NCBI GenBank assembly: GCA_030819375.1
Contig: GCA_030819375.1_4699.1
Strand: one strand, 5' to 3'
Source: a phage
Length of the DNA: 38,456 bases
In this document: positions 3,233 through 35,069 of the stretch, piece after piece
Layout: every line of letters starts with the position of its first letter
How positions within the stretch are numbered: position 1 is the stretch's first letter
Notes under the pieces: generated by a model
What the model saw: the letters and a program-made list of their open reading frames with translations, nothing else
The model's database searches: none
Told to the model about the DNA's origin: nothing
Made by a program: the position numbers and the translations under genes

Positions 3233-5860
3233 ATGAAAGATTTATACGAAACCCAACTCATGTTAGAGGAAGAGATGTTCTCTGGTGGTATCCGTCGCTT
3301 TGAAGCGGACCAACAACGCCAGATTGCATCCGGTAATGAATCAGACACGGCATGGAATCGCCGCCTATTGTCTGAGTTAATCGCACCTATGGCTGAAGGT
3401 ATTCAGGCATACAAGGAAGAGTATGAAGGTAAAAGAGGCCGTGCACCGCGTGCATTAGCTTTCATTAACTGCGTAGAAAACGAAGTGGCAGCATATATCA
3501 CGATGAAAATCGTTATGGATATGCTGAACACGGATGTAACCTTGCAGGCTATAGCCATGAATGTAGCTGACCGCATTGAGGACCAAGTACGTTTTAGCAA
3601 GCTGGAAGGTCACGCCGCCAAATACTTTGAGAAAGTTAAGAAGTCACTTAAGGCAAGTAAGACTAAATCATATCGCCATGCGCACAACGTAGCGGTCGTG
3701 GCTGAGAAGTCAGTAGCTGACCGTGACGCTGATTTCTCTCGCTGGGAGGCGTGGCCTAAAGATACCTTGCTACAAATCGGGATGACCTTGCTAGAAATAC
3801 TGGAAAATAGTGTATTCTTCAATGGTCAGCCTGTCTTTCTTCGCACCTTGCGCACTAATGGTGGCAAGCATGGCGTTTACTACTTACAGACTAGCGAACA
3901 CGTGGGTGAATGGATAACTGCATTTAAAGAGCACGTAGCTCAGCTGAGCCCAGCCTATGCGCCTTGCGTGATTCCTCCTCGTCCGTGGGTGTCACCTTTT
4001 AATGGCGGTTTTCACACTGAGAAGGTGGCAAGCCGTATTCGTCTGGTTAAAGGTAACCGCGAGCACGTCCGCAAGCTGACCAAAAAGCAAATGCCAGCGG
4101 TTTACAAGGCTGTTAACGCCTTACAAGCTACTAAGTGGCAGGTTAACAAGGAAGTATTGCAGGTAGTAGAAGATGTTATTCGTCTAGACCTCGGTTATGG
4201 TGTACCTTCCTTTAAGCCGCTCATTGACCGCGAGAACAAACCAGCTAACCCTGTTCCTCTTGAGTTCCAGCACCTGCGAGGCCGTGAACTTAAAGAGATG
4301 CTAACGCCGGAACAATGGCAAGCCTTCATCCACTGGAAAGGTGAATGTACCAAGCTGTATGCCGCTGAAACTAAGCGCGGCAGCAAGTCGGCGGCAACCT
4401 TTCGCATGGTCGGGCAGGCCCGTAAATACAGCCAGTTTGACGCAATATACTTCGTGTATGCACTGGACAGCCGCTCACGCGTTTATGCGCAATCTAGCAC
4501 ACTCTCACCGCAATCAAATGACTTAGGCAAGGCTTTACTACGCTTTACCGAAGGGCAAACCATAAACAGCACTGAGGCGCTTAAGTGGTTTTTGGTGAAC
4601 GGGGCAAATAACTGGGGCTGGGATAAGAAAACTTTTGACGTGCGTACCGCTAACGTGCTGGATGGCGAATTTCAAGACATGTGCCGCGACATTGCAGCCG
4701 ACCCGCTGACCTTCACTCAATGGGTAAATGCTGATTCCCCTTATGGCTTCCTTGCATGGTGCTTTGAATATGCGCGTTATCTGGATGCACTGGACGAAGG
4801 AACGCAAGACCAATTCATGACGCACCTACCCGTCCATCAAGATGGGAGTTGCTCTGGTATCCAGCACTATAGCGCGATGTTACGCGATGAAGTAGGTGCG
4901 AAAGCAGTAAACCTTAAGCCTTCTGACTCCCCTCAAGATATTTATGGCGCGGTTGCGCAGGTTGTTATCCAGAAGAATTACGCCTACATGAATGCAGACG
5001 ATGCAGTGACTTTCACATCCGGAAGCGTCACACTTGCAGGTGCAGAACTGCGTAGCATGGCTAGTGTGTGGGATATGATAGGAATCACTCGCGGCCTGAC
5101 CAAAAAGCCCGTAATGACCCTACCTTATGGCAGCGCACGTCTAACCTGCCGTGAGTCAGTGATTGATTATATCGTTGATTTAGAAGAAAAAGAGGCCCAA
5201 CGAGCTATTGCGGAAGGGCGTACCGCCAATCCTGTACATCCTTTTGATAATGGCCGTAAGGACAGCCTGACACCTGGCGCAGCTTATAACTATATGACAG
5301 CTTTAATCTGGCCTTCTATTTCGGAAGTGGTTAAAGCTCCTATAGTGGCAATGAAAATGATTCGTCAGCTTGCCCGTTTCGCAGCTAAAAGGAATGTAGG
5401 CTTAGAGTATACCTTGCCTACTGGCTTCATCTTGCAACAAAAGATAATGGCGACAGATATGCTCCGCGTATCTACTTGCTTGATGGGAGAAATCAAGATG
5501 AGTCTACAGATTGAAACGGACGTAGTGGATGAAACGGCTATGATGGGCGCTGCTGCTCCTAACTTTGTGCATGGTCATGATGCCAGCCACCTTATCTTAA
5601 CAGTCTGCGACCTTGTTGATAAAGGGATTACATCTATCGCAGTCATTCATGATTCTTTCGGTACTCACGCAGGTCGTACAGCCGATCTACGTGATAGTCT
5701 AAGGGCAGAAATGGTGAAGATGTATCAAGGCCGTAATGCATTGCAAAGCCTGCTAGATGAGCACGAAGAACGCTGGTTAGTTGATACTGGAATCCAAGTG
5801 CCAGAGCAAGGAGAGTTTGACCTTAACGAAATCTTAGTATCTGACTATTGCTTCGCATAA
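3233..5860 (+). CDS. Single-subunit DNA-dependent RNA polymerase (T7 gene 1 family), 875 aa
   Basis: Length and C-terminal ...[13 protein letters not shown] resemble the T7 RNAP terminus (recalled ...NLRDILESDFAFA); conserved palm motifs; matching promoters throughout the window. Confidence 0.97.
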
Positions 5861-5868
5861 TATTAATA

Positions 5869-5899
5869 GGCCATTCCTTCGGGAGTGGCCTTTTCTTTT
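5869..5899 (+). terminator. Intrinsic terminator after the RNAP gene
   Basis: 9-bp GC-rich stem ggccattcc/ggagtggcc with UUCG tetraloop, followed by TTTTCTTTT. Confidence 0.8.
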
Positions 5900-5935
5900 A
5901 CCTACTACCGGTAAAAAATTTCATTAACATAAAGT

Positions 5936-5951
5936 GTCTCACATGTGAGAC
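5936..5951. repeat. GTCTCACATGTGAGAC palindromic hairpin element (copy 1)
   Basis: Perfect 16-bp palindrome immediately upstream of the promoter at 5954. Confidence 0.8.
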
Positions 5952-5953
5952 TT

Positions 5954-5976
5954 ATTTACCGGACACTATAGGATAG
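5954..5976 (+). promoter_or_regulatory. Phage-RNAP promoter (ATTTACCGGACACTATAGG)
   Basis: Matches the recurring consensus; predicted +1 G at 5971. Confidence 0.75.
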
Positions 5977-6117
5977 CCGTCGGAGACGGGAAAGAAAGGG
6001 AAGATAAAGGATATAAAAGGAAGTAATAGGTATTAAAGGTTATATAGGTTATCTAGGAATACCTATTACCTTCTTCCTTCCTCTTATTACCACTTAGAGG
6101 AAGGGCAGATCTAGGTT

Positions 6118-6133
6118 GTCTCACATGTGAGAC
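6118..6133. repeat. GTCTCACATGTGAGAC palindromic hairpin element (copy 2)
   Basis: Perfect 16-bp palindrome immediately upstream of the promoter-like sequence at 6139. Confidence 0.8.
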
Positions 6134-6138
6134 TTCGT

Positions 6139-6161
6139 ATTTACCGGACAGTATAGATAAG
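6139..6161 (+). promoter_or_regulatory. Variant phage promoter-like sequence (ATTTACCGGACAGTATAGATA)
   Basis: Consensus with C-to-G change in the CACTATA core; arranged in tandem with 5954 like the paired promoters at the T7 primary origin. Confidence 0.45.
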
Positions 6162-6186
6162 ACTAACTTACTTTGGAGATTTAACC

Positions 6187-6264
6187 ATGCGTAACTTTGA
6201 GAAGATGACCCGTAAAGCTAACCGTTTGACATGGAAGAAGGGCAGAAGAAAGGCAAGAAGTTGA
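6187..6264 (+). CDS. Small basic peptide (25 aa, MRNFEKMTRKANRLTWKKGRRKARS), T7 gene 1.1-like position
   Basis: GGAGA RBS 7 nt upstream of ATG 6187; below ORF-track cutoff; lies between the tandem promoters and the primase gene. Confidence 0.3.
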   Translation: MRNFEKMTRKANRLTWKKGRRKARS

Positions 6265-6284
6265 ATGCGTGGGAGTTCTAAGTT

Positions 6285-8273
6285 ATGGCTATTATTCAGA
6301 ATGTACCGTGTCCTGCTTGCCAAAAGAACGGACATGATATTACTGGCAATCATTTAATGATCTTTGACGACGGGGCAGGATACTGTAATCGTGGTCACTT
6401 CCATGATAACGGTAAACCTTATTACCACAAGCCGGAAGGTGGCATCGAGATAACCGAGTTACCTATTACTGGCAATATCAAATATACACCTTCTCAATTC
6501 AAAGAAATGGAGAAGGAAGGGAAGATAAGCGACCCTAAATTACGTGCCATCGCACTAGGTGGTATGCGTATGAAAGACCGTTGGGAGGTCATGAATGAGC
6601 AAGAAAGGGCAGACCAAGAAGCAGAGTGGAAACTTGATGTTGAATGGTTCCTCACGCTTAAGCGTAAGAACCTTGTTTCCCGACACATTCGCGGTGACAT
6701 TTGCGCATTGTATGATGTACGTGTCGGACACGATGAAGAGGGTAGAGTCACGCGGCATTACTATCCACGCTTCGAGCAAGGTGAGCTAGTAGGAGCTAAG
6801 TGTCGCACATTACCTAAAGACTTTAAGTTTGGTCATTTAGGTAAACTCTTTGGTATGCAAGATCTTTTCGGGATGAATACTTTGTCTCACGTGTTAGACA
6901 GGGGAAGACGAAAGGATTGCTTGCTTATTGTGGGTGGGGAACTGGATGCGCTAGCAGCGCAGCAGATGCTCCTTGATTCTGCCAAGGGTACTAAGTGGGA
7001 AGGTCAACCTTACCATGTATGGTCTGTTAACAAAGGGGAGTCTTGCCTTGAAGAGATTGTACAGAACCGTGAACACATCGCCCAATTCAAGAAGATTATT
7101 TGGGGCTTCGATGGGGATGAGGTAGGGCAGAAGCAGAATCAGCAAGCGGCTCGCCTGTTTCCTGGTAAATCCTATATCCTTGAATACCCCTCTGGTTGCA
7201 AAGATGCTAACAAGGCATTGATGGCTGGCAAGGCTAAAGAATTTGTAGATGCATGGTTTAATGCCAAGTCATCTGATGAAGTCTTTGGTAGCCAGATTAA
7301 ATCTATCGCATCTCAAAGGGATAAGCTCAAGGCTGCACGTCCAGAGCAAGGGTTATCATGGCCTTGGCCTAAGCTGAACAAGGTAACGCTAGGTATTCGT
7401 AAGAACCAGCTTATCATTGTAGGTGCAGGCTCTGGTGTAGGTAAGACTGAGTTCCTTCGCGAAGTGGTTAAGCACCTCATTGAAGAACACGGTGAATCTG
7501 TAGGCATCATTTCTACAGAAGACCCAATGGTCAAGGTGTCCCGTGCTTTTATCGGCAAGTGGATTGATAAGCGTATTGAGTTACCGCCAACCAACGATCC
7601 GAAAGAAGACGGATACCGTGAGGTGTTCGACTACACCGAGGAAGAAGCTAACGCTGCCATTGATTATGTGGCTGATACAGGGAAGCTGTTTGTAGCTGAC
7701 CTAGAGGGTGACTATTCTATGGAGAAGGTAGAGCAAACTTGCCTAGAGTTTGAGGCTATGGGCATTTCTAATATCATCATTGATAACTTAACGGGGATTA
7801 AATTAGATGAGCGTGCTTTTGGTGGGAAGGTTGGTGCACTTGATGAATGCGTCAAGCGGATTGGTACTATCAAAGACAGACATGCAGTTACTATATTCCT
7901 TGTATCACACCTTACACGTCCTCCGGCAAACCGTACCCAACACGAAGAAGGTGGCGAGGTTATCCTTTCTGACTTCCGAGGCTCAGGGGCTATCGGATTC
8001 TGGGCATCTTACGCCTTGGGGATTGAGCGTAACACAAGAGCTGAAACGCTTGATGAAAGAACTACCACGTACATCTCATGTGTCAAAGACCGCGACCAAG
8101 GTATCTACACCGGAACCAAGATCATGCTTAAGGGTGACATTCAAACCGGACGTTTGAGAGAACCTCAAGCCCGTACTAGGTCATTTGACACAGGCGAAGC
8201 AAGGCAACAAGAAGTGCCTGATTTACCGGACACTATAGAAGAGACTAACTTCGATGAAGAAAGTGAGTTTTGA
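6285..8273 (+). CDS. DNA primase/helicase (T7 gp4-like), 662 aa
   Basis: N-terminal Cys4 zinc ribbon (CPACQ...CNRGH), Walker A GAGSGVGKT, acidic C-terminus ending ...FDEESEF. Confidence 0.95.
   Translation: MAIIQNVPCPACQKNGHDITGNHLMIFDDGAGYCNRGHFHDNGKPYYHKPEGGIEITELPITGNIKYTPSQFKEMEKEGKISDPKLRAIALGGMRMKDRWEVMNEQERADQEAEWKLDVEWFLTLKRKNLVSRHIRGDICALYDVRVGHDEEGRVTRHYYPRFEQGELVGAKCRTLPKDFKFGHLGKLFGMQDLFGMNTLSHVLDRGRRKDCLLIVGGELDALAAQQMLLDSAKGTKWEGQPYHVWSVNKGESCLEEIVQNREHIAQFKKIIWGFDGDEVGQKQNQQAARLFPGKSYILEYPSGCKDANKALMAGKAKEFVDAWFNAKSSDEVFGSQIKSIASQRDKLKAARPEQGLSWPWPKLNKVTLGIRKNQLIIVGAGSGVGKTEFLREVVKHLIEEHGESVGIISTEDPMVKVSRAFIGKWIDKRIELPPTNDPKEDGYREVFDYTEEEANAAIDYVADTGKLFVADLEGDYSMEKVEQTCLEFEAMGISNIIIDNLTGIKLDERAFGGKVGALDECVKRIGTIKDRHAVTIFLVSHLTRPPANRTQHEEGGEVILSDFRGSGAIGFWASYALGIERNTRAETLDERTTTYISCVKDRDQGIYTGTKIMLKGDIQTGRLREPQARTRSFDTGEARQQEVPDLPDTIEETNFDEESEF
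8221..8243 (+). promoter_or_regulatory. Phage promoter embedded in the 3' end of the primase/helicase gene
   Basis: ATTTACCGGACACTATAGAAGAG; +1 G at 8238; encodes DLPDTIEE in frame. Confidence 0.65.
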
Positions 8274-8288
8274 TTAGTGTATTTATCA

Positions 8289-8320
8289 GGGCTTGTCTCA
8301 CATGTGAGACAGGCTCTTAT
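8289..8320 (+). terminator. Hairpin with GTCTCACATGTGAGAC core (copy 3), terminator or processing site
   Basis: 18-bp perfect palindrome 8294-8311 inside a ~12-bp stem with a G-U pair, followed by a weak T-run. Confidence 0.5.
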
Positions 8321-8349
8321 TAAGTACATTAAATAACTGGATATTGATT

Positions 8350-9033
8350 ATGTATAAATTAGTATTGAATGTAGGTGATTATGTTCGTAACATCAATGTA
8401 ACCTCACGTAGATATCGTTGCCGTGGTACTGTGACTAATGTAAGTGAAAACAGCTACTATGTAGAGTACAGTAATGGTATTAGACAGGCTTATCAAAAGG
8501 AATCAGCACATAACTACCTTGAGAAGATTGGAGAGGTAAGCAATCAATGTAAGTGCGTACACGATGAGATTTGCGATAAGTGTGCCCGCCAGCTGCATAA
8601 AATGCTATTATACCCTCTTCGCTATGGTGCTGGTGTTCAAACATTAGCAGAGGCATATGGCAAAAGTAAGACCACACTCAAGAAAGAGCGCCGCAATGTA
8701 ATCACTGGTAAGACTCAAAGTGAAATGATTAAACTATGTGGCACTGCATTAGGTGTTACGCAGTTTAATACTCGTTCATTGGGTAAATCCACAGGGCAAG
8801 CTATGGTGAAAGTTGGTGAAGCTATGATGCACCCAAATGTGCCTGTGCGAATCTTGGATGTTGACCATGCAATCACAGAGCATGGCACACCACGGCGTGT
8901 AGCTAATAATCATTTCGCCGACACTATAGAAGGTATTATTCGTAAGCAAGGGTTGCAGGGTCTTCACATCTTAAATGGTGAAGAATTACTGTACCTACCT
9001 ATCGTTACTGAAGAAACATACGTGAATATCTAA
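8350..9033 (+). CDS. Hypothetical protein (~227 aa)
   Basis: ORF track 8344..9033 begins at TTG; first ATG is 8350; no recognisable motif. Confidence 0.55.
   Translation: MYKLVLNVGDYVRNINVTSRRYRCRGTVTNVSENSYYVEYSNGIRQAYQKESAHNYLEKIGEVSNQCKCVHDEICDKCARQLHKMLLYPLRYGAGVQTLAEAYGKSKTTLKKERRNVITGKTQSEMIKLCGTALGVTQFNTRSLGKSTGQAMVKVGEAMMHPNVPVRILDVDHAITEHGTPRRVANNHFADTIEGIIRKQGLQGLHILNGEELLYLPIVTEETYVNI
8912..8932 (+). promoter_or_regulatory. Promoter-like sequence inside a coding region (ATTTCGCCGACACTATAGAAGG)
   Basis: Core GACACTATAGAAG conserved, upstream half divergent; +1 G at 8929. Confidence 0.35.
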
Positions 9034-25129: not shown

Positions 25130-27534
25130 TGGAAGTACAAGGCTCTTTAGGTCGTCAGATTCAAGGTATTAGCCAACAACCAGCAGCAGTGCGGTTAGAT
25201 GGTCAATGTACTGATATGGTTAATATGGTTCCAGATGTAGTCAACGGTACACAATCTCGCATGGGAAGCACACACATTGCTAGGCTTCTTGATTCTGGTG
25301 ACGAAAACATGGCAACACATCATTACCGCAGAGGTGATGGTGTAGAGGAATATTTCTTCATTATGAAGAAAGGTAGCGTGCCAGAAATATTTGACAAAGA
25401 AGGTCGTAAATGCACTGTGACCTCTCAGGATGAACCTATGGCCTATCTTGCTGAGGTTGTGAACCCGAGAGAAGACGTGCAGTTCATGACTATTGCTGAT
25501 GTAACATTTATGCTTAACAGGCGTAAAGTAGTGAAAGCTCGTAGTGATAAGTCTCCAAAGGTGGGAAACAAGGCTATTGTGTTTTCTGCCTACGGGCAGT
25601 ATGGCACTTCGTACACTATCTCTATTAACGGCGAGCAAGCGGCGACCTTCAAAACTCCAGATGGAAGCGACCCTAGTCATGTAGAACAGATTCGCACTGA
25701 GTACCTAGCAACTAAGCTATATGAGAGTTTACAGACATGGAGTAAAGCGTCACAGTACACCTTGCAAAGAGAAGGCACTAGTATCTACATTGAAACTAAA
25801 GATGGTAGTGATTTCACTATTACTACTACAGATGGGGCCAAGGGTAAGGACTTGGTTGCCATAAAGAACCGAGTGTCATCTACAGACTTACTTCCCTCAA
25901 GAGCACCAGAAGGGTACAAGGTACAGGTGTGGCCTACAGGTAGTAAACCAGAATCTCGGTATTGGCTAGAGGCTGTACCTAAAGAGGGAGGTAACTTAGT
26001 TGCTTGGCAAGAAACTATTGCAGCAGATGTGTTACTTGGCTTTGATAAAGACACTATGCCTTATATTATAGAGCGTACAGGTATTGTCGGAGGTGTGGCA
26101 CAGTTTAAGATACGACATGGCGATTGGGAAGACCGTAAGGTAGGCGATGACCTAACTAACCCTATGCCTTCTTTTATTGATGAAGATGTACCACAGGCGA
26201 TTGGTGGTATGTTCATGGTGCAGAACCGTCTTTGTGTCACAGCAGGAGAAGCTGTCATAGCAACTAGGACTTCTCACTTCTTTGACTTCTTCCGCTTCTC
26301 CGCAGTGTCTGAGGTTGCAACAGATCCTTTTGATATTTTCTCAGATGCAAGTGAGGTCTACCAGCTCAAACATGCAGTAACACTAGATGGGGCAACGGTA
26401 TTATTCTCAGACACATCTCAGTTCATACTTCCTGGGGATAAAGTATTAGAGAAATCTAATGTCATACTCAAGCCTGCTACAACTTTCGAAGTGGATAATA
26501 GGGTGTCACCTGTGGCAACTGGTGAATCCGTGATGTTTGCTACAAGTGAAGGTGCTTACTCTGGTGTGCGTGAGTTTTATACCGACTCTTACAGCGACAC
26601 TAAGAAAGCACAGGCTGTTACTAGTCATGTTAACAAGTTGATAGAAGGTAATATAACTCATATGGTTGCTAGCACTAATATCAACAGGTTACTTGTGGTA
26701 ACAGACAGGGACCCTAATATTGTCTATTGCTATGACTGGTTGTGGCAAGGGACAGATCGTGTACAATCTGCATGGCATAAGTGGGTGTGGCCTAAAGATA
26801 CTTTGATTCGCTCTATGTTCTATTCCTCAGAGGTATTGTATCTCCTTGTAGAACGAGGTAATACTGGTTTGTATCTAGAGGTGATGGATATGGGTGATGC
26901 TCTTACTTATGGTTTAGTTGACAGAATTAGACTGGATAGGCAAGCAGAGTTGATCTTCACCTATGATGCTAATACAGACCAGTGGGTTTCTAATGAGTTG
27001 CCTTGGAAGCCTACTGACCCAGCCTTACTTGAGTGTGTGATAATTCAAGGGTGGCCTGCTTATATTGGTGGTTCTTTTCATTTTGAATATGATGAAGCCA
27101 GTAATAAGCTAATTACAACTTTTGATTTATCAGAAGAAGGCACTAATGCTATAGCTGTCGTAGGGCAGTTGTATCAGCAGGAGTTTGAGCCAACACAGGT
27201 CGTTATTCGAGATAACCAAGATAGAGTGTACTACATAGATGTGCCAGTGGTAGGCCTAGTTCACCTTAACTTGGATAAATACCCTGACTTTGAAGTTCAT
27301 ATCAAGAACTTAAAGAGTGGCAAATTAAGAAAGGCTTTGGCATCTAACAGGAAAGGCGGGGCACTTAATAATGTTGTTGGTTATGTCAAGCCAGAAGAGG
27401 GGTCATTCAAATTTCCACTAAGATCCCTTAGTACAGATACTGTTTATCGTATCATTGTTAACTCCCCTCATACATTCCAACTCAGGGATATTGAGTGGGA
27501 AGGTTCGTATAACCCAACTAAGAGGAGGGTATGA
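25129..27534 (+). CDS. Tail tubular protein B (gp12-like), 801 aa
   Basis: Size close to T7 gp12 (~794 aa); position. Confidence 0.9.
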   Translation: MEVQGSLGRQIQGISQQPAAVRLDGQCTDMVNMVPDVVNGTQSRMGSTHIARLLDSGDENMATHHYRRGDGVEEYFFIMKKGSVPEIFDKEGRKCTVTSQDEPMAYLAEVVNPREDVQFMTIADVTFMLNRRKVVKARSDKSPKVGNKAIVFSAYGQYGTSYTISINGEQAATFKTPDGSDPSHVEQIRTEYLATKLYESLQTWSKASQYTLQREGTSIYIETKDGSDFTITTTDGAKGKDLVAIKNRVSSTDLLPSRAPEGYKVQVWPTGSKPESRYWLEAVPKEGGNLVAWQETIAADVLLGFDKDTMPYIIERTGIVGGVAQFKIRHGDWEDRKVGDDLTNPMPSFIDEDVPQAIGGMFMVQNRLCVTAGEAVIATRTSHFFDFFRFSAVSEVATDPFDIFSDASEVYQLKHAVTLDGATVLFSDTSQFILPGDKVLEKSNVILKPATTFEVDNRVSPVATGESVMFATSEGAYSGVREFYTDSYSDTKKAQAVTSHVNKLIEGNITHMVASTNINRLLVVTDRDPNIVYCYDWLWQGTDRVQSAWHKWVWPKDTLIRSMFYSSEVLYLLVERGNTGLYLEVMDMGDALTYGLVDRIRLDRQAELIFTYDANTDQWVSNELPWKPTDPALLECVIIQGWPAYIGGSFHFEYDEASNKLITTFDLSEEGTNAIAVVGQLYQQEFEPTQVVIRDNQDRVYYIDVPVVGLVHLNLDKYPDFEVHIKNLKSGKLRKALASNRKGGALNNVVGYVKPEEGSFKFPLRSLSTDTVYRIIVNSPHTFQLRDIEWEGSYNPTKRRV

Positions 27535-28259
27535 TGGCAGTAATGGCAACAGTAGGATCAAGCCTAGCCAGTATGTTCTCCAGTAGTGCAGGTGCTGCGG
27601 CTGCTAGTAGCGCTGCTGGTAGTGCCGCCGCTGGGAGTGGTGGTGTGCTTGGCTCTGTCGGAAGTTTCTTAGGTGGAAGCTCTGCTGGCTTTTCTAATGC
27701 AGGTTTGTTGTCTGCTGGACTACAAGGCTTAAACTTACTAGGCGGCCTATTCGGTGGACGAGATACCGCTAAGGCTATGCAGAAAGCACAAGAAGAAGAG
27801 TGGAGACAAAGGCTAGAAGCCACACGTGAAGCCTATTCTTCTGTGGCAAATGCAGAACGGTCTGCTGCAAAGCAATATCATTCTGACTTCCTTAATAATC
27901 AAATTTCACTGATGCAGCAACGAGCGCAAGTTGCAGTAATGGCAGGTGCTACTGGAACAGGTGGTAGCTCCATCACATCCATGCTCAATGATTTGACGGC
28001 AGAAGGCGGTCGTAATCAGTCAACCATTATAGATAATTATGAGAATCAGCAAATCAACTTTGCCAACCAGTTGAAGTCTATTCAACGCAGTGGACAGATG
28101 CAGATGCGAACGTTTGACAAACCTTCCGCTTTGGGTACTTTGGTGAAAGGTATACCAAGCCTTGCATCTTCCTATGTCACCGGAAGTAAAGCAGGTATGG
28201 CGCTTGGCAAGGCTATCACTGAGTCTCGTACTTATTCATCAGGAACTAGAGGGGTTTAA
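27531..28259 (+). CDS. Internal virion protein (small core protein), 242 aa, Gly/Ala/Ser-rich N-terminus
   Basis: Position after tail tube B; GAGGAGGG RBS. Confidence 0.8.
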   Translation: MMAVMATVGSSLASMFSSSAGAAAASSAAGSAAAGSGGVLGSVGSFLGGSSAGFSNAGLLSAGLQGLNLLGGLFGGRDTAKAMQKAQEEEWRQRLEATREAYSSVANAERSAAKQYHSDFLNNQISLMQQRAQVAVMAGATGTGGSSITSMLNDLTAEGGRNQSTIIDNYENQQINFANQLKSIQRSGQMQMRTFDKPSALGTLVKGIPSLASSYVTGSKAGMALGKAITESRTYSSGTRGV

Positions 28260-31202
28260 ATGGCAATTGAACGTCAAGCTGTACAAGGTTTAGAAAGAGT
28301 ACAGTCAAGGGGTGCGCCAATGCCTATGTCTTTCACACCACGACAAGTGAGTATCTCAGGGGGCGCTGATGCCTCCGGTAGTAGATTTTTGGAAGACTTA
28401 GTAAACGCCGCAAGTAGTGTGGCTGATGTCACTACTGCTATCCTTAATCAGCAAGTAGAAGACGATAAGGTTCGCCAGATGGATAGGGCTTTGTCTGGCA
28501 TGATGCCTTCTGAGGATGCCACGGTAGGCGGTGCTCGTGCTCATATGCTGGTTAGTTTACAAAATGATGTAATCGCACAGACAACTGCGCTACAAGCAGA
28601 AGCACAGCGATTTCAAGGTAGTGACGAGGATTGGGAAAACTATGTAGTTCAATCTCGTAATGAGGTACAAAATAGGTTATGGCAAAGTTATCCAGAGCTT
28701 CGTGGTGACAAAGATTCTATGAGGCTTGTCACTAACGCGTTCATGGAGCAGCAACCTAGAATTACTGCAACTAGAGCAGAGGCTAAACTTCGTCAAGAAG
28801 AAGAAGCACGAATGCAATCTATGCAGTCTCGTATTATCATGGCTACAAGGGACGTAGCGCCAGATGCCACTGGTGCAGCTCTTATCCAGCTACAAAAAGA
28901 AGCACTGGCGATGGGTCTTAGTAAACCTGAGTTTGATCAAATGGTTGCTAAGATTGCATCTGAAAGAGCGGCAGTAGGAGATGATAGTCTTATTCAGGGA
29001 ACCAAGGCATTGGTGGATGATAAGGGTGTCTCTTTGTATGACCGTGTTGGTGCTTTGCAAACTGGAGAAATTCAAGCTAACAGAACTTGGGCTGCTCAGA
29101 ATCAGGTTGCCCTCTTCGAGAAGAAAGATGCAGCTATAAAGGCATTCGATGCAGGGCAACTTACTCGCGAAGAGTTACTTCAGGTGATGCAGAATCACAA
29201 TGAATTGACTGGTGGCACTGCTTGGTCTGATAGCGAGATCAAGGCTATCTTCGATAGGCAAGCTAAGGTTAATGCAGAGAAAGCAAAGCTAGAAGATCTT
29301 ATTGCACGAGGTGAATCTGGGTCGCCTTTAGGCTTACAGGACATTAGTAAGGATGACAGAAAGGCATATGCTGAAGCCTTAGTTAGTACCTACACTAAGC
29401 TGGCAGAAGATGAAATTGCCCGTACTGGTGCAACGGGAGAACAGGCTGAAGCTATTCGCGGTAGGTATGAGCAGATGCGTTATCTTAAATTGGGTCAACA
29501 GCTTATTGAAGACCCGATCATTAAGGAAAGGTATTCGTCGCTTATGCAGCTATCCTCTGCCAACCTCAAGGATATGAATGTTGAACCTGAAGCACTGCAA
29601 ACTATCATGCGAGCACGTGATTCTATTCCAGAGGATGCACGTCGTGCTGTTATGGGAGACAAAGAATATGCCTTTGTTGAGAACTATGACTTAGCAACTC
29701 GCATGGGGTATAACACAGGTCAAGCTATTGAGTTTGCACAGAATGCCTCTCGCGGCGAGAAATTACAAGGTTCTGTGCTCAAAGAACTTAATGATGATGT
29801 AGATGGAGTAGTTAGTGACATTGCAGGAGGCAGCTGGCTCACTTTTGGTGATAACATGAGTGAAATGGGACGTGACATTATGATGGAGGAGGCAAGTACA
29901 ATTGCTAGAGCAATGAAGGTTGCAGGCCATAATAATGACACTATTAAGCGTCACCTTAAATCCTACCTTACAAGCCAGTATACACAATTATCAGAAGGTT
30001 TCTTTACTCAAGGTGTTCTTGTAAAAGGAGACATTCGTACGTTAGGAGATACTATAGGAGTAAACCAAGGAGACGTCCCAATTACTCTCCGTCAGTACCT
30101 AGATAATAACAAACAAGCCCTGCTAGATGCATCAGGTGGGTTAGAGGAAGGCGACCTATATTTTGATGTAGATGCGAAGCGCGGCCTCTTTACTATACGT
30201 GCAGGCTCTGGTCGTGTGCCTGTTACACAGGCAATGCCTTTGTCTGAAATCAAAGGGCAATCCTTGCTTAAGCAACGGTATAATGCAGAGGTTAAAGCAC
30301 GTGATGAAGGGCGTAAGAACTTTGAAGCACAACAAATGCGAATGTGGGGCGCAGGTGGCTACCAAGCACAACCACCTGCAAAGACTACAGCCAAAACTGT
30401 AGGCTCACGTGGGATTGCTGACTTCTTAATGTCACCTGCCTTTGCATCAGGCGAGAATCTACCAGCAAACTTTGAGTTCGGATATAAGAGAAATAATATG
30501 GACTTCTACAATTATGTAGCCAAGATGGAGAATAATACCAATGTAGGTTTTGACCGAGTAGCTGGTGTTTATACACCATACAAAGATGCACATGGTCAGT
30601 CTGTAGGGTACGGTCACTTCCTTACTACTGAAGAGAAGAAGAACGGATACATTATGATTGGTACAGAGAAAGTGCCATTCACTCCGGGACAATCTCAATT
30701 AACACCAGAACGAGCCATGCGCCTTCTACAGCAAGACTTGAAGAGTCATGTGCCAAGTACTTCAGGATGGGCTGTTCCCTTCGAAGAGATGCACCCAGGT
30801 GTTCAGCGTGGCCTTATGGACTTGTCCTATAATTTAGGAAAAGGCGGGATCCAGAATGCTCCTAAGGCATACGCTGCATTTAAGGCTGGCAAGTTTACTG
30901 ATGGCTTCATCGAGATGCTATCTACTGCATCTACTGAAGGCAAGCGCAGCACTGGATTGTTAGTTCGTAGGGCGGAAGCTTATAACCTTGCACAGAGTGG
31001 TGGTGCTATCCCTAAGATTAGTGAAGTGGAGACACGAGCAGATGGATCTATGTATGTGAAGTTTGCAGGACAGATGTCAGAGGCTTTCGTAAATAAATCA
31101 ATCTACAATCAGATTGGTAAGGATGGGTGGATGCAAGTGTATCCTCCAAAGCAAGGTGCACTTGCACCTAACACTCAGATTGGTAGAATCAAACTGAGCT
31201 AG
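28260..31202 (+). CDS. Internal virion (ejection) protein with C-terminal lysozyme-like domain, 980 aa
   Basis: Residues ~740-910: YKDAHGQSVGYGH...LTPERAMRLLQQDL...LMDLSYNLGKGG...LLVRRAEAYNL resembles GH24 phage lysozymes. Confidence 0.9.
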   Translation: MAIERQAVQGLERVQSRGAPMPMSFTPRQVSISGGADASGSRFLEDLVNAASSVADVTTAILNQQVEDDKVRQMDRALSGMMPSEDATVGGARAHMLVSLQNDVIAQTTALQAEAQRFQGSDEDWENYVVQSRNEVQNRLWQSYPELRGDKDSMRLVTNAFMEQQPRITATRAEAKLRQEEEARMQSMQSRIIMATRDVAPDATGAALIQLQKEALAMGLSKPEFDQMVAKIASERAAVGDDSLIQGTKALVDDKGVSLYDRVGALQTGEIQANRTWAAQNQVALFEKKDAAIKAFDAGQLTREELLQVMQNHNELTGGTAWSDSEIKAIFDRQAKVNAEKAKLEDLIARGESGSPLGLQDISKDDRKAYAEALVSTYTKLAEDEIARTGATGEQAEAIRGRYEQMRYLKLGQQLIEDPIIKERYSSLMQLSSANLKDMNVEPEALQTIMRARDSIPEDARRAVMGDKEYAFVENYDLATRMGYNTGQAIEFAQNASRGEKLQGSVLKELNDDVDGVVSDIAGGSWLTFGDNMSEMGRDIMMEEASTIARAMKVAGHNNDTIKRHLKSYLTSQYTQLSEGFFTQGVLVKGDIRTLGDTIGVNQGDVPITLRQYLDNNKQALLDASGGLEEGDLYFDVDAKRGLFTIRAGSGRVPVTQAMPLSEIKGQSLLKQRYNAEVKARDEGRKNFEAQQMRMWGAGGYQAQPPAKTTAKTVGSRGIADFLMSPAFASGENLPANFEFGYKRNNMDFYNYVAKMENNTNVGFDRVAGVYTPYKDAHGQSVGYGHFLTTEEKKNGYIMIGTEKVPFTPGQSQLTPERAMRLLQQDLKSHVPSTSGWAVPFEEMHPGVQRGLMDLSYNLGKGGIQNAPKAYAAFKAGKFTDGFIEMLSTASTEGKRSTGLLVRRAEAYNLAQSGGAIPKISEVETRADGSMYVKFAGQMSEAFVNKSIYNQIGKDGWMQVYPPKQGALAPNTQIGRIKLS

Positions 31203-31212
31203 TGTTATACTC

Positions 31213-31246
31213 AAGGTTTGTCTCACATGTGAGACATGCCTTTATG
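31213..31246 (+). terminator. Hairpin with GTCTCACATGTGAGAC core (copy 6), terminator or processing site
   Basis: Stem ggtttgtctca/tgagacatgcc, loop CATG, then TTTATGA; directly after the stop at 31202. Confidence 0.5.
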
Positions 31247-31265: not shown

Positions 31266-34200
31266 ATGGTTGATAGTATTAACCAAAATTGGGTGGCGGT
31301 GACTCAACGCAAGTTACCGCCTACCTTCTCTCAAGTTGCTGAAGCAGAGCGTAAGGCCGAAGCACAGAGAGCTAATGACAAAGTATTCCAAACAGCCATA
31401 GAGAGTGAGTGGGCTTTGTATGGTGGACAACGTGCCTATGAACGCCACACTACAGAGTTTGCTGAACAAGAAGGTTATGAAGTACCTGAATCAACTAAGG
31501 ATGAACTATCCAAGTCGTATGGGTATGAAATAGCGCAAGATATAGTCAAGAATGTGAAGTCTCCAGAAGAGTTGCAATTCCGTATGTCTAATGCTGCTGC
31601 TGATAAAGACAGAGCAGACATCTTAGCACGTAATGGTTTCACAGGTTTCAGCGCACAGATTGCTGCTGGTATTCTTGACCCTGTAGGTTGGGCGACTTCT
31701 CTAGTAGCTGCACCTGTAGCTGGTGCTGTCAAAGTAGGTCGTCTAGGTAGGGTTATCAAGACGGCTGCCTTATCTGGTGCTGAAAATGCTGCATTAGAAG
31801 CTGTGCTTGCACAAGGTGATTACCAGCGAGGTGTCGATGATGTACTGGCTGCTGCCGGGTTTGGTATGATTATGGGCGGTACTATTGGCGCTGCAACTAG
31901 GGAACGCATAGCCAGTGCTGGTTCTCGTACAGCGGCAGAGAGAGCAGAGGCTGTATTTGATGACTTGGACACCGTAGTAAAAGGTGCTGATGAGTTTGAC
32001 TCGTCTGCTGCTCGTGCTGTACGTGAGGCCATGGAGTATGACGCGTATATGGCAGCACGTAATTATGAACCACTTCGTGCAAGAGAGGTGGATGCAGATA
32101 TGGCAATTCTATCTCACACAGACAACTTGAAAGCCAATGCGTCGGTAAGGATGAGTGCTAGAGAGAAAGGACTACTGAAGAAACAGATACGCCAACTGGA
32201 AGCAGAAGCAGCCACACTTAAGGGGAAGAAGATAGATGCTGTAGCAGAGGCTGCCGCCGCTAAGGGTGCACCTAAATCTGCTGCGGACAGATTGGATTTA
32301 GATGTTCAGAAGAAAGCACTGGCACGTAGATTCGATGAACCACTTGCTGATTTACAAGCGCGTCTTGATGAGTTGAATGCCAAGTTATCTCGTGCGAACA
32401 ATGTAGGTAAGGCTAAGGAGGAGCTTAAGAGATTCTCATCGCTGTCCCGTGAAGATCAAATAAAGGAACTAGGTTTAGACGCACCAATGCGTAAGGTGGA
32501 GATGACCCGTGCTGTACGAGATGCAGTAGCTGCAATCCGTGCCGAACGTAAGAAGACACCTACCGAGATACATGCTGAACAAGCTGCAGAAGAGGTAATC
32601 AAGCAAAAGGCAGAGGACTCTATTGGTGCTAAACGTGTTGAAGGTTCAGAGATTGCAGGCGAGCAGTTTGACTTATCTAAAAACATGGAAGAACTTATGG
32701 ATGACTTGGCACGAGAAGCATATCAGTCAGAGGTGCGGCCTATTAATCTTAAGGGTCTAGGTTCAGTGTCTTCTGTGATTCTTAACTCAGAGAATCCTGT
32801 GTTCCGAGGTCTAGGTCTTCGTCTGCTTGAAAATGCTCAAGGTGGTGCATACCAAGGTAAGACAGCTTCTATCTTATCAGATGTGTATGGCAACCTTATT
32901 CGTCATGCAGAACGTAACAGGTACAATGATGGTTTCTCTCAATTCATCAAAGATAACAACCTACGTGCGGTAGATTATCTTAACCCTGCAACGACACGGG
33001 ATTTCAATAATCAGATTTATACAGCAATTGTTCGTGGCATACCAGAAGATACACCTCGTGGTGTTAAACTGGCAGCAGAAGGTATCGCTGATAAACTCAA
33101 GAAAGCACTTGAGATTCGTAAGCAAGCAGGAGAGCATGGATTCGAAGATATACAATCTGCTAAGGATTACATCCCTGTTATCTATGACGGTATCAAGGTT
33201 ACTGAGGCAGTTAACAAATTGGGGAGTAGTGAGGCTGTTATTCACTTACTATCCAAAGGCTACCAGACAGGTAAGTACAAACTTGGCAAGAAAGCTGCGG
33301 ATGCCCTAGCAAAAGTACAGTACATTCGTGCATCGGACTCCACCCTCTCTAGTCGTGTTGCATTCGATAGGGTGGTATCCCAGCAGCAGCAGGCTCAATT
33401 GATTGAGGATCTGAAGAAAGCAGGGGTACCAGACCATATCATTGATAATTTCATTGAAGGTACTGAATTAGCAGAAATGGCTGAATCGGTATCCAATCGA
33501 GCTAAAGCTAGTATGGGTATTAATACGCAAGCCGAATATGGCGGTTTGAAGGTGCAGGATTTGCTTAATACAAACGTAGGGGAGCTAGCGGAGAACTACG
33601 GCAAAGAGGCAGCGGGTGGTGCTGCATTGGCTGCTATGGGTTTCCCTACTCGCCAATCTGTGCTGAACGCAATAGATGCCGCAGAACGCGCAGGCCGCAA
33701 TATGGCGGGGTCAAATGCTAAGGCAATCAAACAGCTTAGGTCTGAGGCAGAAATGCTCAGAGATGCCGTTAAGTTAATTTACGGCAACACTATTGACGCC
33801 GACCCTAACTCTGGAATTGTCAGGGGCACTCGACGTGTCCGTGAGATTACAGGGTTGTTACGATTAGGCCAAATGGGCTTCGCTCAGATACCTGAACTGG
33901 CACGTGCAATCTCTAAGATGGGACTAGGGACTGTGCTGAAGTCTGTACCTGCCACTAAGTTCTTACGTTCGAGAGCGGCTCGTAAAGGTGGCACTGCTCA
34001 GGGTGAGTTGCTTGAACCTGAACTGCGAGAAATGGAGGAACTCTTAGGTTATATCGGGGAGGATAACTGGCTCACAGGGTGGAATGTCCGTCATGATGAG
34101 TTCGGAGAAACTGCGGATAACCTAGGCAAGCTGTCTGCTATTATTGATAACGGATTAGCTATGGGTAGTAGAATCAACACAATACTATCTGGTTTTAAAG

Positions 34201-35069
34201 CAGTACAAGGTGGCTCAGAGAAGATTATAGCTCGCTCTATCAATAAGCGACTAAAGCAACATTTGATGGGGGAGCGACAGTTACCCAAAGCAGATCTTGA
34301 AGAAGTTGGCCTAAGTGAAGATGTCATGAAGAGACTTAAGCGTCACTTTGATGATAACCCAATGTACGCTGATTACAAAGGTGAAAAAGTTCGTATGATG
34401 AACTTTGATGCTATGGAGCCAGACCTGAGAGAGACAGTGGGTGTTGCTGTGCGAAGAATGTCAGGACGTCTTATTCAGCGTAACTTCATAGGAGATGAAG
34501 GTATCTGGATGAATAAATGGTGGGGCAAGGCATTGACCCAGTTTAAGTCATTCTCTATTGTCTCTATTGAGAAACAGCTAATCCATGATTTACGAGGAGA
34601 TAAGATTCAGGCTGCACAGATCCTTGCATGGTCTACCTTACTAGGCTATGCATCTTATGCACTACAGATGCAGATGCAAGCAATTGGTAGGGAGGACAGA
34701 GACAAGTTCTTGAGGGATAAGTTCGAGACACAGAATATCGCTATGGGTGTCTTTAATAAACTCCCACAAGTTGCAGGCTTCGGTCTTGCTGGTGATGCTT
34801 TGGCAACATTTGGCCTAATGCCAGACTCTATGATGCAAGCGCCTGGACGTATGGGGTTCCGTCAGCAAGGGTTTGGTGATTTGGTAGCAGGTGCTGGTGT
34901 GATCAGCGATACAGTTAATTTGTCACAAGCACTAGTTAAGTACGCCAACGGAGATGATGATGTCTCTACTCGGCAGTTGGTGGACAAGGTTCGTCGCCTT
35001 GTTCCTTTGGCAAATACTATTGGTGTAGGTCAGATGACTAAAGCCAGTGTAGACTTATTGGAGGATTGA
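31266..35069 (+). CDS. Large internal virion (ejection/core) protein, gp16-like, 1267 aa
   Basis: Largest ORF of the structural module; AGGAGG RBS. Confidence 0.9.
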   Translation: MVDSINQNWVAVTQRKLPPTFSQVAEAERKAEAQRANDKVFQTAIESEWALYGGQRAYERHTTEFAEQEGYEVPESTKDELSKSYGYEIAQDIVKNVKSPEELQFRMSNAAADKDRADILARNGFTGFSAQIAAGILDPVGWATSLVAAPVAGAVKVGRLGRVIKTAALSGAENAALEAVLAQGDYQRGVDDVLAAAGFGMIMGGTIGAATRERIASAGSRTAAERAEAVFDDLDTVVKGADEFDSSAARAVREAMEYDAYMAARNYEPLRAREVDADMAILSHTDNLKANASVRMSAREKGLLKKQIRQLEAEAATLKGKKIDAVAEAAAAKGAPKSAADRLDLDVQKKALARRFDEPLADLQARLDELNAKLSRANNVGKAKEELKRFSSLSREDQIKELGLDAPMRKVEMTRAVRDAVAAIRAERKKTPTEIHAEQAAEEVIKQKAEDSIGAKRVEGSEIAGEQFDLSKNMEELMDDLAREAYQSEVRPINLKGLGSVSSVILNSENPVFRGLGLRLLENAQGGAYQGKTASILSDVYGNLIRHAERNRYNDGFSQFIKDNNLRAVDYLNPATTRDFNNQIYTAIVRGIPEDTPRGVKLAAEGIADKLKKALEIRKQAGEHGFEDIQSAKDYIPVIYDGIKVTEAVNKLGSSEAVIHLLSKGYQTGKYKLGKKAADALAKVQYIRASDSTLSSRVAFDRVVSQQQQAQLIEDLKKAGVPDHIIDNFIEGTELAEMAESVSNRAKASMGINTQAEYGGLKVQDLLNTNVGELAENYGKEAAGGAALAAMGFPTRQSVLNAIDAAERAGRNMAGSNAKAIKQLRSEAEMLRDAVKLIYGNTIDADPNSGIVRGTRRVREITGLLRLGQMGFAQIPELARAISKMGLGTVLKSVPATKFLRSRAARKGGTAQGELLEPELREMEELLGYIGEDNWLTGWNVRHDEFGETADNLGKLSAIIDNGLAMGSRINTILSGFKAVQGGSEKIIARSINKRLKQHLMGERQLPKADLEEVGLSEDVMKRLKRHFDDNPMYADYKGEKVRMMNFDAMEPDLRETVGVAVRRMSGRLIQRNFIGDEGIWMNKWWGKALTQFKSFSIVSIEKQLIHDLRGDKIQAAQILAWSTLLGYASYALQMQMQAIGREDRDKFLRDKFETQNIAMGVFNKLPQVAGFGLAGDALATFGLMPDSMMQAPGRMGFRQQGFGDLVAGAGVISDTVNLSQALVKYANGDDDVSTRQLVDKVRRLVPLANTIGVGQMTKASVDLLED

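Follow-up and report, generated by a model that had tools for sequence, protein, structure and literature searches.

A C-terminal GH24 lysozyme domain on the gp15-like internal virion protein of an SP6/K1-5-like podovirus

In bacteriophage T7, gp15 (internal virion protein C, IVP-C) has a body that stacks on the portal within the capsid; once ejected, this body makes up the periplasmic tunnel of the DNA ejectosome. T7 gp15 has 747 amino acids and no enzymatic domain. The presumed job of cleaving murein locally at genome entry belongs in T7 to another ejected core protein, gp16, through its N-terminal lytic transglycosylase. Here, we describe a 980-amino-acid protein in which a lysozyme domain is instead joined to the C-terminal side of a gp15-like body. 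The protein is encoded by an open reading frame (ORF) at 28260..31202 (+) of a 38,456-nt stretch of phage DNA (GenBank assembly GCA_030819375.1, contig GCA_030819375.1_4699.1), referred to below as the window, which is the nearly complete genome of an SP6/K1-5-like podovirus. All coordinates are positions in this window, and residue numbers are those of the 980-amino-acid protein. It is very likely a gp15-type ejection protein of a Vectrevirus, with a tethered GH24 muramidase that would cut murein at DNA ejection and replace the transglycosylase of T7 gp16. The two enzymes differ in family and chemistry (a non-hydrolytic SLT transglycosylase versus a GH24 muramidase), in the protein that carries them, and in the terminus at which they are found.

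Proteins of this kind have been reported before. Lysozymes listed in a review of virion-associated enzymes include SP6 Gp36 (107 kDa) and K1-5 Gp38 (109 kDa), for which the review cites virion zymograms by Moak and Molineux 2004 (PMC5380687, Table 2); phiKMV Gp36 is entered there as an internal head protein with a thermostable lysozyme at its C-terminus (PMC5380687). A paper on phage UAB_Phi78 likewise notes the resemblance of the SP6 Gp36 C-terminus to cell-wall lysozymes (PMC4837284). Internal virion proteins were described as ones that "variably host" tail lysozyme domains (Hardies et al. 2016; PMC4819975), and the gp15-like proteins of K1E and K1-5 were stated to hold the lysozyme activity that is located on gp16 in T7 (Swanson et al. 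2022; PMC8954989). In the phiKMV-like phage Ar-KM, cryo-electron microscopy of the pre-ejection stack showed that the gp15-like gp42 carries a T4 lysozyme-like domain at residues 740-881, and in the predicted tunnel these domains face outward at the height of the cell wall, level with the transglycosylase of T7 gp16 (bioRxiv 10.64898/2026.05.18.726046). The same study analysed 205 Autographivirales genomes and found a C-terminal lysozyme on the tunnel protein in 31 of the 127 with an identifiable lysozyme or transglycosylase domain. The feature is, therefore, already known, and the present case has little value as a discovery: the literature on SP6, K1-5, and K1E (through zymograms cited in reviews) and on phiKMV already documents the domain, its carrier, and the swap with respect to T7 gp16.

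The 980-amino-acid protein is the orthologue of SP6 gp36, K1E gp35, K1-5 gp38 (gp35 in some numbering), and LL11 gp41, with which it shares its length (978-982 amino acids), gene position, and C-terminal lysozyme domain. At the nucleotide level, the gene is 99.6% identical to that of Escherichia phage LL11 (Autographiviridae; Molineuxvirinae; Vectrevirus), 87.6-93.5% identical to those in eleven other coliphage, Raoultella, and Citrobacter phage records, and about 75% identical to those of the listed Salmonella-group phages, including SP6 gene 36 at 74.8%. None of these orthologues differs from the 980-amino-acid protein in anything of substance. Between LL11 and the window there are a few substitutions in this gene, and indels in other parts of the genome. 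Within the lysozyme domain, protein identity is 89.9% to SP6 gp36 and about 65% to K1E. The protein matches PHROG 4290, 'lysozyme domain-containing protein', from end to end (E = 0, 1457.6 bits, protein residues 1-979, profile positions 1-969 of 969).

The lysozyme domain

An earlier, sequence-only reading of the window had proposed a GH24-type lysozyme domain at 30480-30990 on the strength of four motifs. All four are present in the 980-amino-acid ORF and span nt 30603-30989: VGYGH at residues 782-786 (nt 30603-30617), LTPERAMRLLQQDL at 814-827 (nt 30699-30740), LMDLSYNLGKGG at 852-863 (nt 30813-30848), and LLVRRAEAYNL at 900-910 (nt 30957-30989). The proposed span corresponds to residues 741-910 and nearly coincides with the GH24, or T4-lysozyme-type, muramidase domain as it is drawn here from profile and structural evidence, residues 742-911 (30483..30992, +), with the first modelled helix beginning at residue 742 and the last ending at residue 911.

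A match to lysozyme family profiles was the check that the same reading had put forward, and Pfam gave one. When the C-terminal 300 residues were used as the query, PF00959 (Phage_lysozyme) matched residues 771-906 with E = 2.9e-8, and its score of 34.5 bits exceeds the curated gathering score of 22.3 bits. The family was represented by 46 full-length homologues with 35-98% identity, making 47 aligned sequences with the query; these were collected with the full-length protein as the query, since the C-terminal part by itself yielded just 3 fragments. PF00959 was precomputed for 37 of the 46 homologues and was missing from nine. A profile of the 47 sequences aligned residues 773-886 to residues 17-133 of T4 lysozyme. 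Two results point the other way. PF00959 was not reported when the whole 980-amino-acid protein was submitted as one Pfam query, and a single-sequence phmmer search against the PDB was marginal (E = 0.35). The loss of PF00959 in full-length scans is an artefact of limited sensitivity, through which automated annotation can miss the domain, and it is probably the reason why some database records call the protein 'hypothetical'.

The predicted structure agrees with the profiles. An AlphaFold2 model of residues 701-980, built with the family alignment, had a mean predicted local distance difference test (pLDDT) score of 89 and values above 90 throughout the lysozyme domain, and it adopts the two-lobe alpha+beta fold of lysozymes. 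In Foldseek searches of the PDB with this model, the top matches were all GH24 lysozymes, each with a probability of 1.0. They comprised the Trichophaea GH24 muramidase (8b2s), R21 of phage 21 (3hde), EC340 (8hp8), PHAb10 (9kbq), the DLP12 endolysin (4zpu), the AB5075 prophage muramidase (6et6), SpmX, and T4 lysozyme, with target-length-normalised TM-scores of 0.5-0.75. The nearest neighbours in BFVD, a library of viral structures, were a 953-amino-acid 'lysozyme' of Erwinia phage S2, other large phage proteins with lysozyme domains, and the 854-amino-acid lysozyme of the phiKMV-like phage LKA1. The lysozyme domain is real, the match is well beyond chance, and its assignment to the GH24 type is borne out by PF00959, the profile alignment to T4 lysozyme, and the exclusively GH24 top matches in the PDB.

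The domain shares its two-lobe fold with T4 lysozyme (gp e) and the GH24 lysozyme domain of T4 gp5, and the alignment takes in the equivalents of D20 and T26, the GxGH motif, and the helix that follows the hairpin. Identity to the T4 lysozymes is only about 16%, and the domain in the window has a 10-residue insertion after the catalytic Glu proposed below. The T4 enzymes also work in other settings, as a free endolysin or as part of the baseplate spike, whereas the domain described here is fused to a large ejection protein.

The gp15-like carrier and its neighbours

The full-length AlphaFold2 model (pLDDT 80) is almost wholly alpha-helical up to about residue 696, after which come a linker, the lysozyme domain, and a beta-rich module. 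The helical, T7 gp15-like body, which corresponds to the periplasmic tunnel or core protein of T7, covers residues 1-696 (28260..30347, +). The linker, residues 697-741 (30348..30482, +), connects this body to the lysozyme domain. It was modelled with low confidence, with pLDDT below 50 at residues 698-705 and 53-59 over residues 701-730, and it is the most variable part of the 47-sequence alignment.

With the full-length model as the query, the three best Foldseek matches in the PDB were 9jyy_G (E = 2.7e-7), 7k5c_A (E = 3.2e-7), and 6yt5_A (E = 9.7e-6), and lysozymes appeared only after these. T7 gp15 is present in all three entries, which are the mature T7 core (9jyy), the periplasmic tunnel of the ejectosome (7k5c), and the gp15-gp16 core complex (6yt5). 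The alignments to T7 gp15 extend over 650-720 columns with a probability of 1.0, and the body has an extended all-alpha fold similar to that of T7 gp15. A point against this likeness is that the TM-scores to T7 gp15 are low, at 0.18-0.27. A long helical protein with conformational plasticity would be expected to give such values. The likeness to T7 gp15 lies in the fold of the N-terminal ~700 residues (Foldseek E = 3e-7) and in gene order, and similarity in sequence is undetectable. phiKMV gp36 (KMV36C) and Ar-KM gp42 have the same architecture, with a GH24 domain that starts near residue 740 and is placed C-terminal to an alpha-helical IVP-C body. The bodies of the 980-amino-acid protein and phiKMV gp36 have no significant sequence similarity, and BLASTP finds only the lysozyme core (E = 0.001). 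In that core, both proteins match PF00959, and the phiKMV motif YKDADGYSVGLGH is nearly identical to YKDAHGQSVGYGH in the window.

The position of the gene is that of a gp15-type protein. Downstream of the tail tube genes, the order is an 801-amino-acid tail protein, a 242-amino-acid gp14-like ORF, the 980-amino-acid ORF, a 1267-amino-acid gp16-like ORF, and a tail-fibre/adaptor gene. The gp14-like internal virion protein (27531..28259, +) lies directly 5' of the 980-amino-acid ORF and was identified by Pfam PF24072 (T7_gp14, E = 4.9e-30) and PHROG 805, 'internal virion protein'. The gp16-like internal virion protein (31266..35069, +) lacks the N-terminal lytic transglycosylase domain of T7 gp16. 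Pfam scans of the whole 1267-amino-acid protein and of its first 300 residues returned no match, SLT included, while T7 gp16, the positive control, scored SLT at residues 15-127 with E = 1.7e-31. The match to PHROG 342 starts at profile position 205, and BLASTP aligned residues 99-233 of the gp16-like protein to residues 298-423 of T7 gp16, so that homology begins about 200 residues into T7 gp16. The sequence-only reading had suggested that the cell-wall-degrading activity sits on a different core protein than in T7 and belongs to a different enzyme family. Both suggestions hold, given the gp15-like carrier, its synteny with the gp14-like and gp16-like genes, the absence of SLT from the gp16-like protein, and the contrast between GH24 here and SLT on T7 gp16.

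A competing explanation, which we consider improbable, is that the 980-amino-acid protein, or a fraction of it that escapes packaging, is the endolysin of the phage and acts both at entry and at lysis. Such a double role would fit the GenBank annotation of the LL11 orthologue as a 'putative soluble endolysin' and the description of SP6 as a phage with one muralytic gene serving two functions (Heineman et al. 2009; PMC2680503). However, the gene is situated within the operon of internal virion proteins, a gp15-like structural body makes up about 70% of its product, and neither a signal sequence nor a signal-arrest-release feature adjoins the lysozyme domain. In addition, the near-identical LL11 has a dedicated Peptidase_M15_3 gene (gp49, E = 6e-34) next to holin and spanin genes, just past the point at which the window ends, and this separate lysis cassette argues against the 'soluble endolysin' label. 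The SP6 Gp46 homologue was later named as an M15 endolysin candidate (PMC4837284).

The catalytic residues

The sequence-only reading had found no obvious Glu at the usual catalytic position and had called the activity uncertain. Local profile alignments also miss the residue, but a Glu can be identified at position 757 (codon 30528..30530, +), where it is invariant in all 47 sequences. E757 and the adjacent N758 are retained even in homologues with as little as 35% identity, whereas the helix before them is for the most part variable. In both AlphaFold2 models, E757 is the final residue of the first helix of the domain, residues 742-757. The catalytic E11 of T4 lysozyme likewise sits at the end of the first helix of that enzyme. 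A global hhalign alignment paired VAKME757 with LAQFE753 of phiKMV gp36 and opened a gap of exactly 10 residues.

This gap reflects a difference in spacing. The distance from Glu to Asp is 19 residues in the window protein and 9 in T4 lysozyme and phiKMV gp36, the latter having the canonical sequence QFE753AYRGEAYKD762. The extra residues form a 10-residue insertion, specific to this family, that separates the Glu from the YKD strand within NNTNVGFDRVAGVYTP; it is contained in residues 758-773 (30531..30578, +), the segment in which the global alignment opens its gap and G763 is invariant. In phiKMV gp36, the Pfam match starts at profile position 2, residue 751, and thus covers the Glu. In the window protein, the local Pfam match begins only at profile position 8, residue 771. 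The insertion explains why the Glu falls beyond the reach of local alignments.

The other two residues are reached by the profiles. The HMMER profile alignment paired YKDahg-esvGyGH/YKDAHGQSVGYGH with YKDTEGYYTIGIGH of T4 lysozyme, which makes D776 the equivalent of D20 and S781 the equivalent of T26 (D776 to S781, 30585..30602, +). Position 776 is Asp in 38 of the 47 sequences, and position 781 is Ser or Thr in 43 and Asn in four. We propose E757 as the catalytic acid and D776 as the base, together with S781. The case for E757 as the catalytic Glu and counterpart of T4 lysozyme E11 is strong but inferential, built on conservation, helix position in the models, and the global alignment to phiKMV gp36.

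Several results weigh against this assignment. Local HMMER and hhalign alignments begin at P773 or T772, short of the Glu, and local hhalign comparisons with T4 lysozyme, phiKMV gp36C, phiKMV gp45, and a Vibrio phage lysin never reached the N-terminal helix. Global hhalign against T4 lysozyme was ambiguous, placing the gap elsewhere and leaving E757 unpaired with E11. Furthermore, nine of the 47 sequences have Thr, Ser, or Met at position 776 together with a 4-residue, Asp-rich insertion, and the alignment is uncertain there.

The alignments that stop before any Glu and the unusual Glu-to-Asp spacing could also mean that the lysozyme fold is catalytically dead and has been kept as a peptidoglycan-binding or spacer module, as could the weakest phmmer match to a solved GH24 structure, which starts only at residue 781. 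We regard this as very improbable. E757 and N758 are invariant in all 47 sequences, at the end of the first helix, and the D20 and T26 equivalents are conserved as well. Muralytic bands of matching size were reported for SP6 and K1-5 virions (PMC5380687, Table 2), the domain is 90% identical to that of SP6, and phiKMV gp36C is an active lysozyme (PMC5380687). The residues of a T4 lysozyme-type hydrolytic active site are present, so that the sequence gives no hint of an inactive domain, and the doubt of the sequence-only reading about the catalytic Glu is removed.

That the similarity is a chance or low-complexity match with no lysozyme domain behind it has a negligible probability: the silent full-length Pfam scan and the phmmer E-value of 0.35 would fit it, but it is contradicted by the domain-only Pfam match above the gathering score, by the precomputed PF00959 matches in the homologues, and by a confident model with only GH24 proteins as top matches in the PDB and BFVD, and we reject it on the Pfam domain match, the T4 lysozyme profile alignment, and the fold matches in both structure libraries.

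Proposed action, clade-specific additions, and annotation

The entry role proposed at the outset builds on the identity and fold of the domain, the conservation of its active-site residues, the gp15-like fold of the carrier, the synteny, and the absence of SLT from the gp16 homologue, all of which come from the present analysis. For presence in the virion, ejection, enzymatic activity, and an outward-facing geometry, it draws on relatives and the literature. By this analogy, the 980-amino-acid protein would be packaged in the internal core and expelled through the tail at infection, and its helical body would then form the periplasmic tunnel. The flexible linker, residues 697-741, would tether the GH24 domain, residues 742-911, which is followed by the small beta module. 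The lysozyme domains would be displayed on the outer face of the tunnel, level with the murein layer, where they could hydrolyse the N-acetylmuramic acid-N-acetylglucosamine (MurNAc-GlcNAc) bond locally, and this cleavage of glycan strands may allow the channel to reach the inner membrane. The GH24 domain would thus stand in for the N-terminal lytic transglycosylase of T7 gp16 that is missing from the gp16-like neighbour. Lysis at the end of infection would be left to a separate M15 peptidase, a holin, and spanins. E757, D776, and S781 are targets for mutagenesis in studies of Vectrevirus entry into non-growing cells.

The domain also has features that phiKMV gp36 lacks. In addition to the insertion, where phiKMV gp36 has the canonical Glu-x8-Asp spacing, there are an additional hairpin (NGYIMIG..VPF), in which T789, E792, and G796 are invariant, and a C-terminal beta tail of ~60 residues. 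This beta-rich module, residues 918-980 (31011..31199, +), was modelled with strands at 920-925, 931-935, 957-961, and 975-978, with pLDDT around 95, and D928, G929, F935, G956, W957, and G975 are invariant. A Pfam scan of residues 918-980 returned no match. The start of the module (ISEVE..DG) is common to a 254-amino-acid 'putative lysin' of Vibrio phage VpJYP1 and to PHROG 31077. Peptidoglycan binding, docking, and oligomerisation are all possible roles for the module. One speculation, which we consider unlikely, is that the additions in the Molineuxvirinae (the insertion, the T789/E792/G796 hairpin, and the ~60-residue beta module) act as a regulatory or anchoring device. If so, the additions could hold the enzyme in an inactive state while it is packed in the capsid, or anchor it by docking to murein or the tunnel, a mode of control that has not been described for phiKMV gp36 or T7 gp16.

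Our results have consequences for annotation. Public labels for the 980-amino-acid gene are inconsistent and include 'putative soluble endolysin', 'baseplate hub subunit / lysozyme', 'tail lysin', and 'hypothetical protein'. The gene should be annotated as an internal virion (gp15-like) protein with a C-terminal lysozyme domain, and not as an 'endolysin' or 'baseplate hub'. The genome announcement of LL11 counts its orthologue (LL11 28273..31215) as the endolysin; the M15 protein gp49 (LL11 39174..39518) is the likelier endolysin. The gp16-like ORF bears the label 'internal virion protein with endolysin domain', transferred from PHROG 342 and the LL11 record, although it has no SLT or other muralytic domain, and it should not inherit the words 'with endolysin domain'.

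Some minor observations were made elsewhere in the window. The N-terminus of the gp14-like protein (27531..27800) contains a long Ala/Ser/Gly-rich, glycine-zipper-like stretch, SSSAGAAAASSAAGSAAAGSGGVLGSVGSFLGG...GLFGG, which is presumably the membrane-inserting part. The composition of this stretch has probably also given rise to an artefactual ORF of 101 amino acids on the other strand (27518..27823). Finally, the window is distinct from the LL11 genome, as the coordinate offset between the two is 9 bases at the RNA polymerase gene and 474 at the primase/helicase and DNA polymerase genes, and then changes to 224, about -5, and 13. These shifts, at window ~5860..8273 versus LL11 5869..8747 and further along the genome, fit the absence of the LL11 HNH endonuclease gene (LL11 6325..6762) together with other indels in the early and middle regions.

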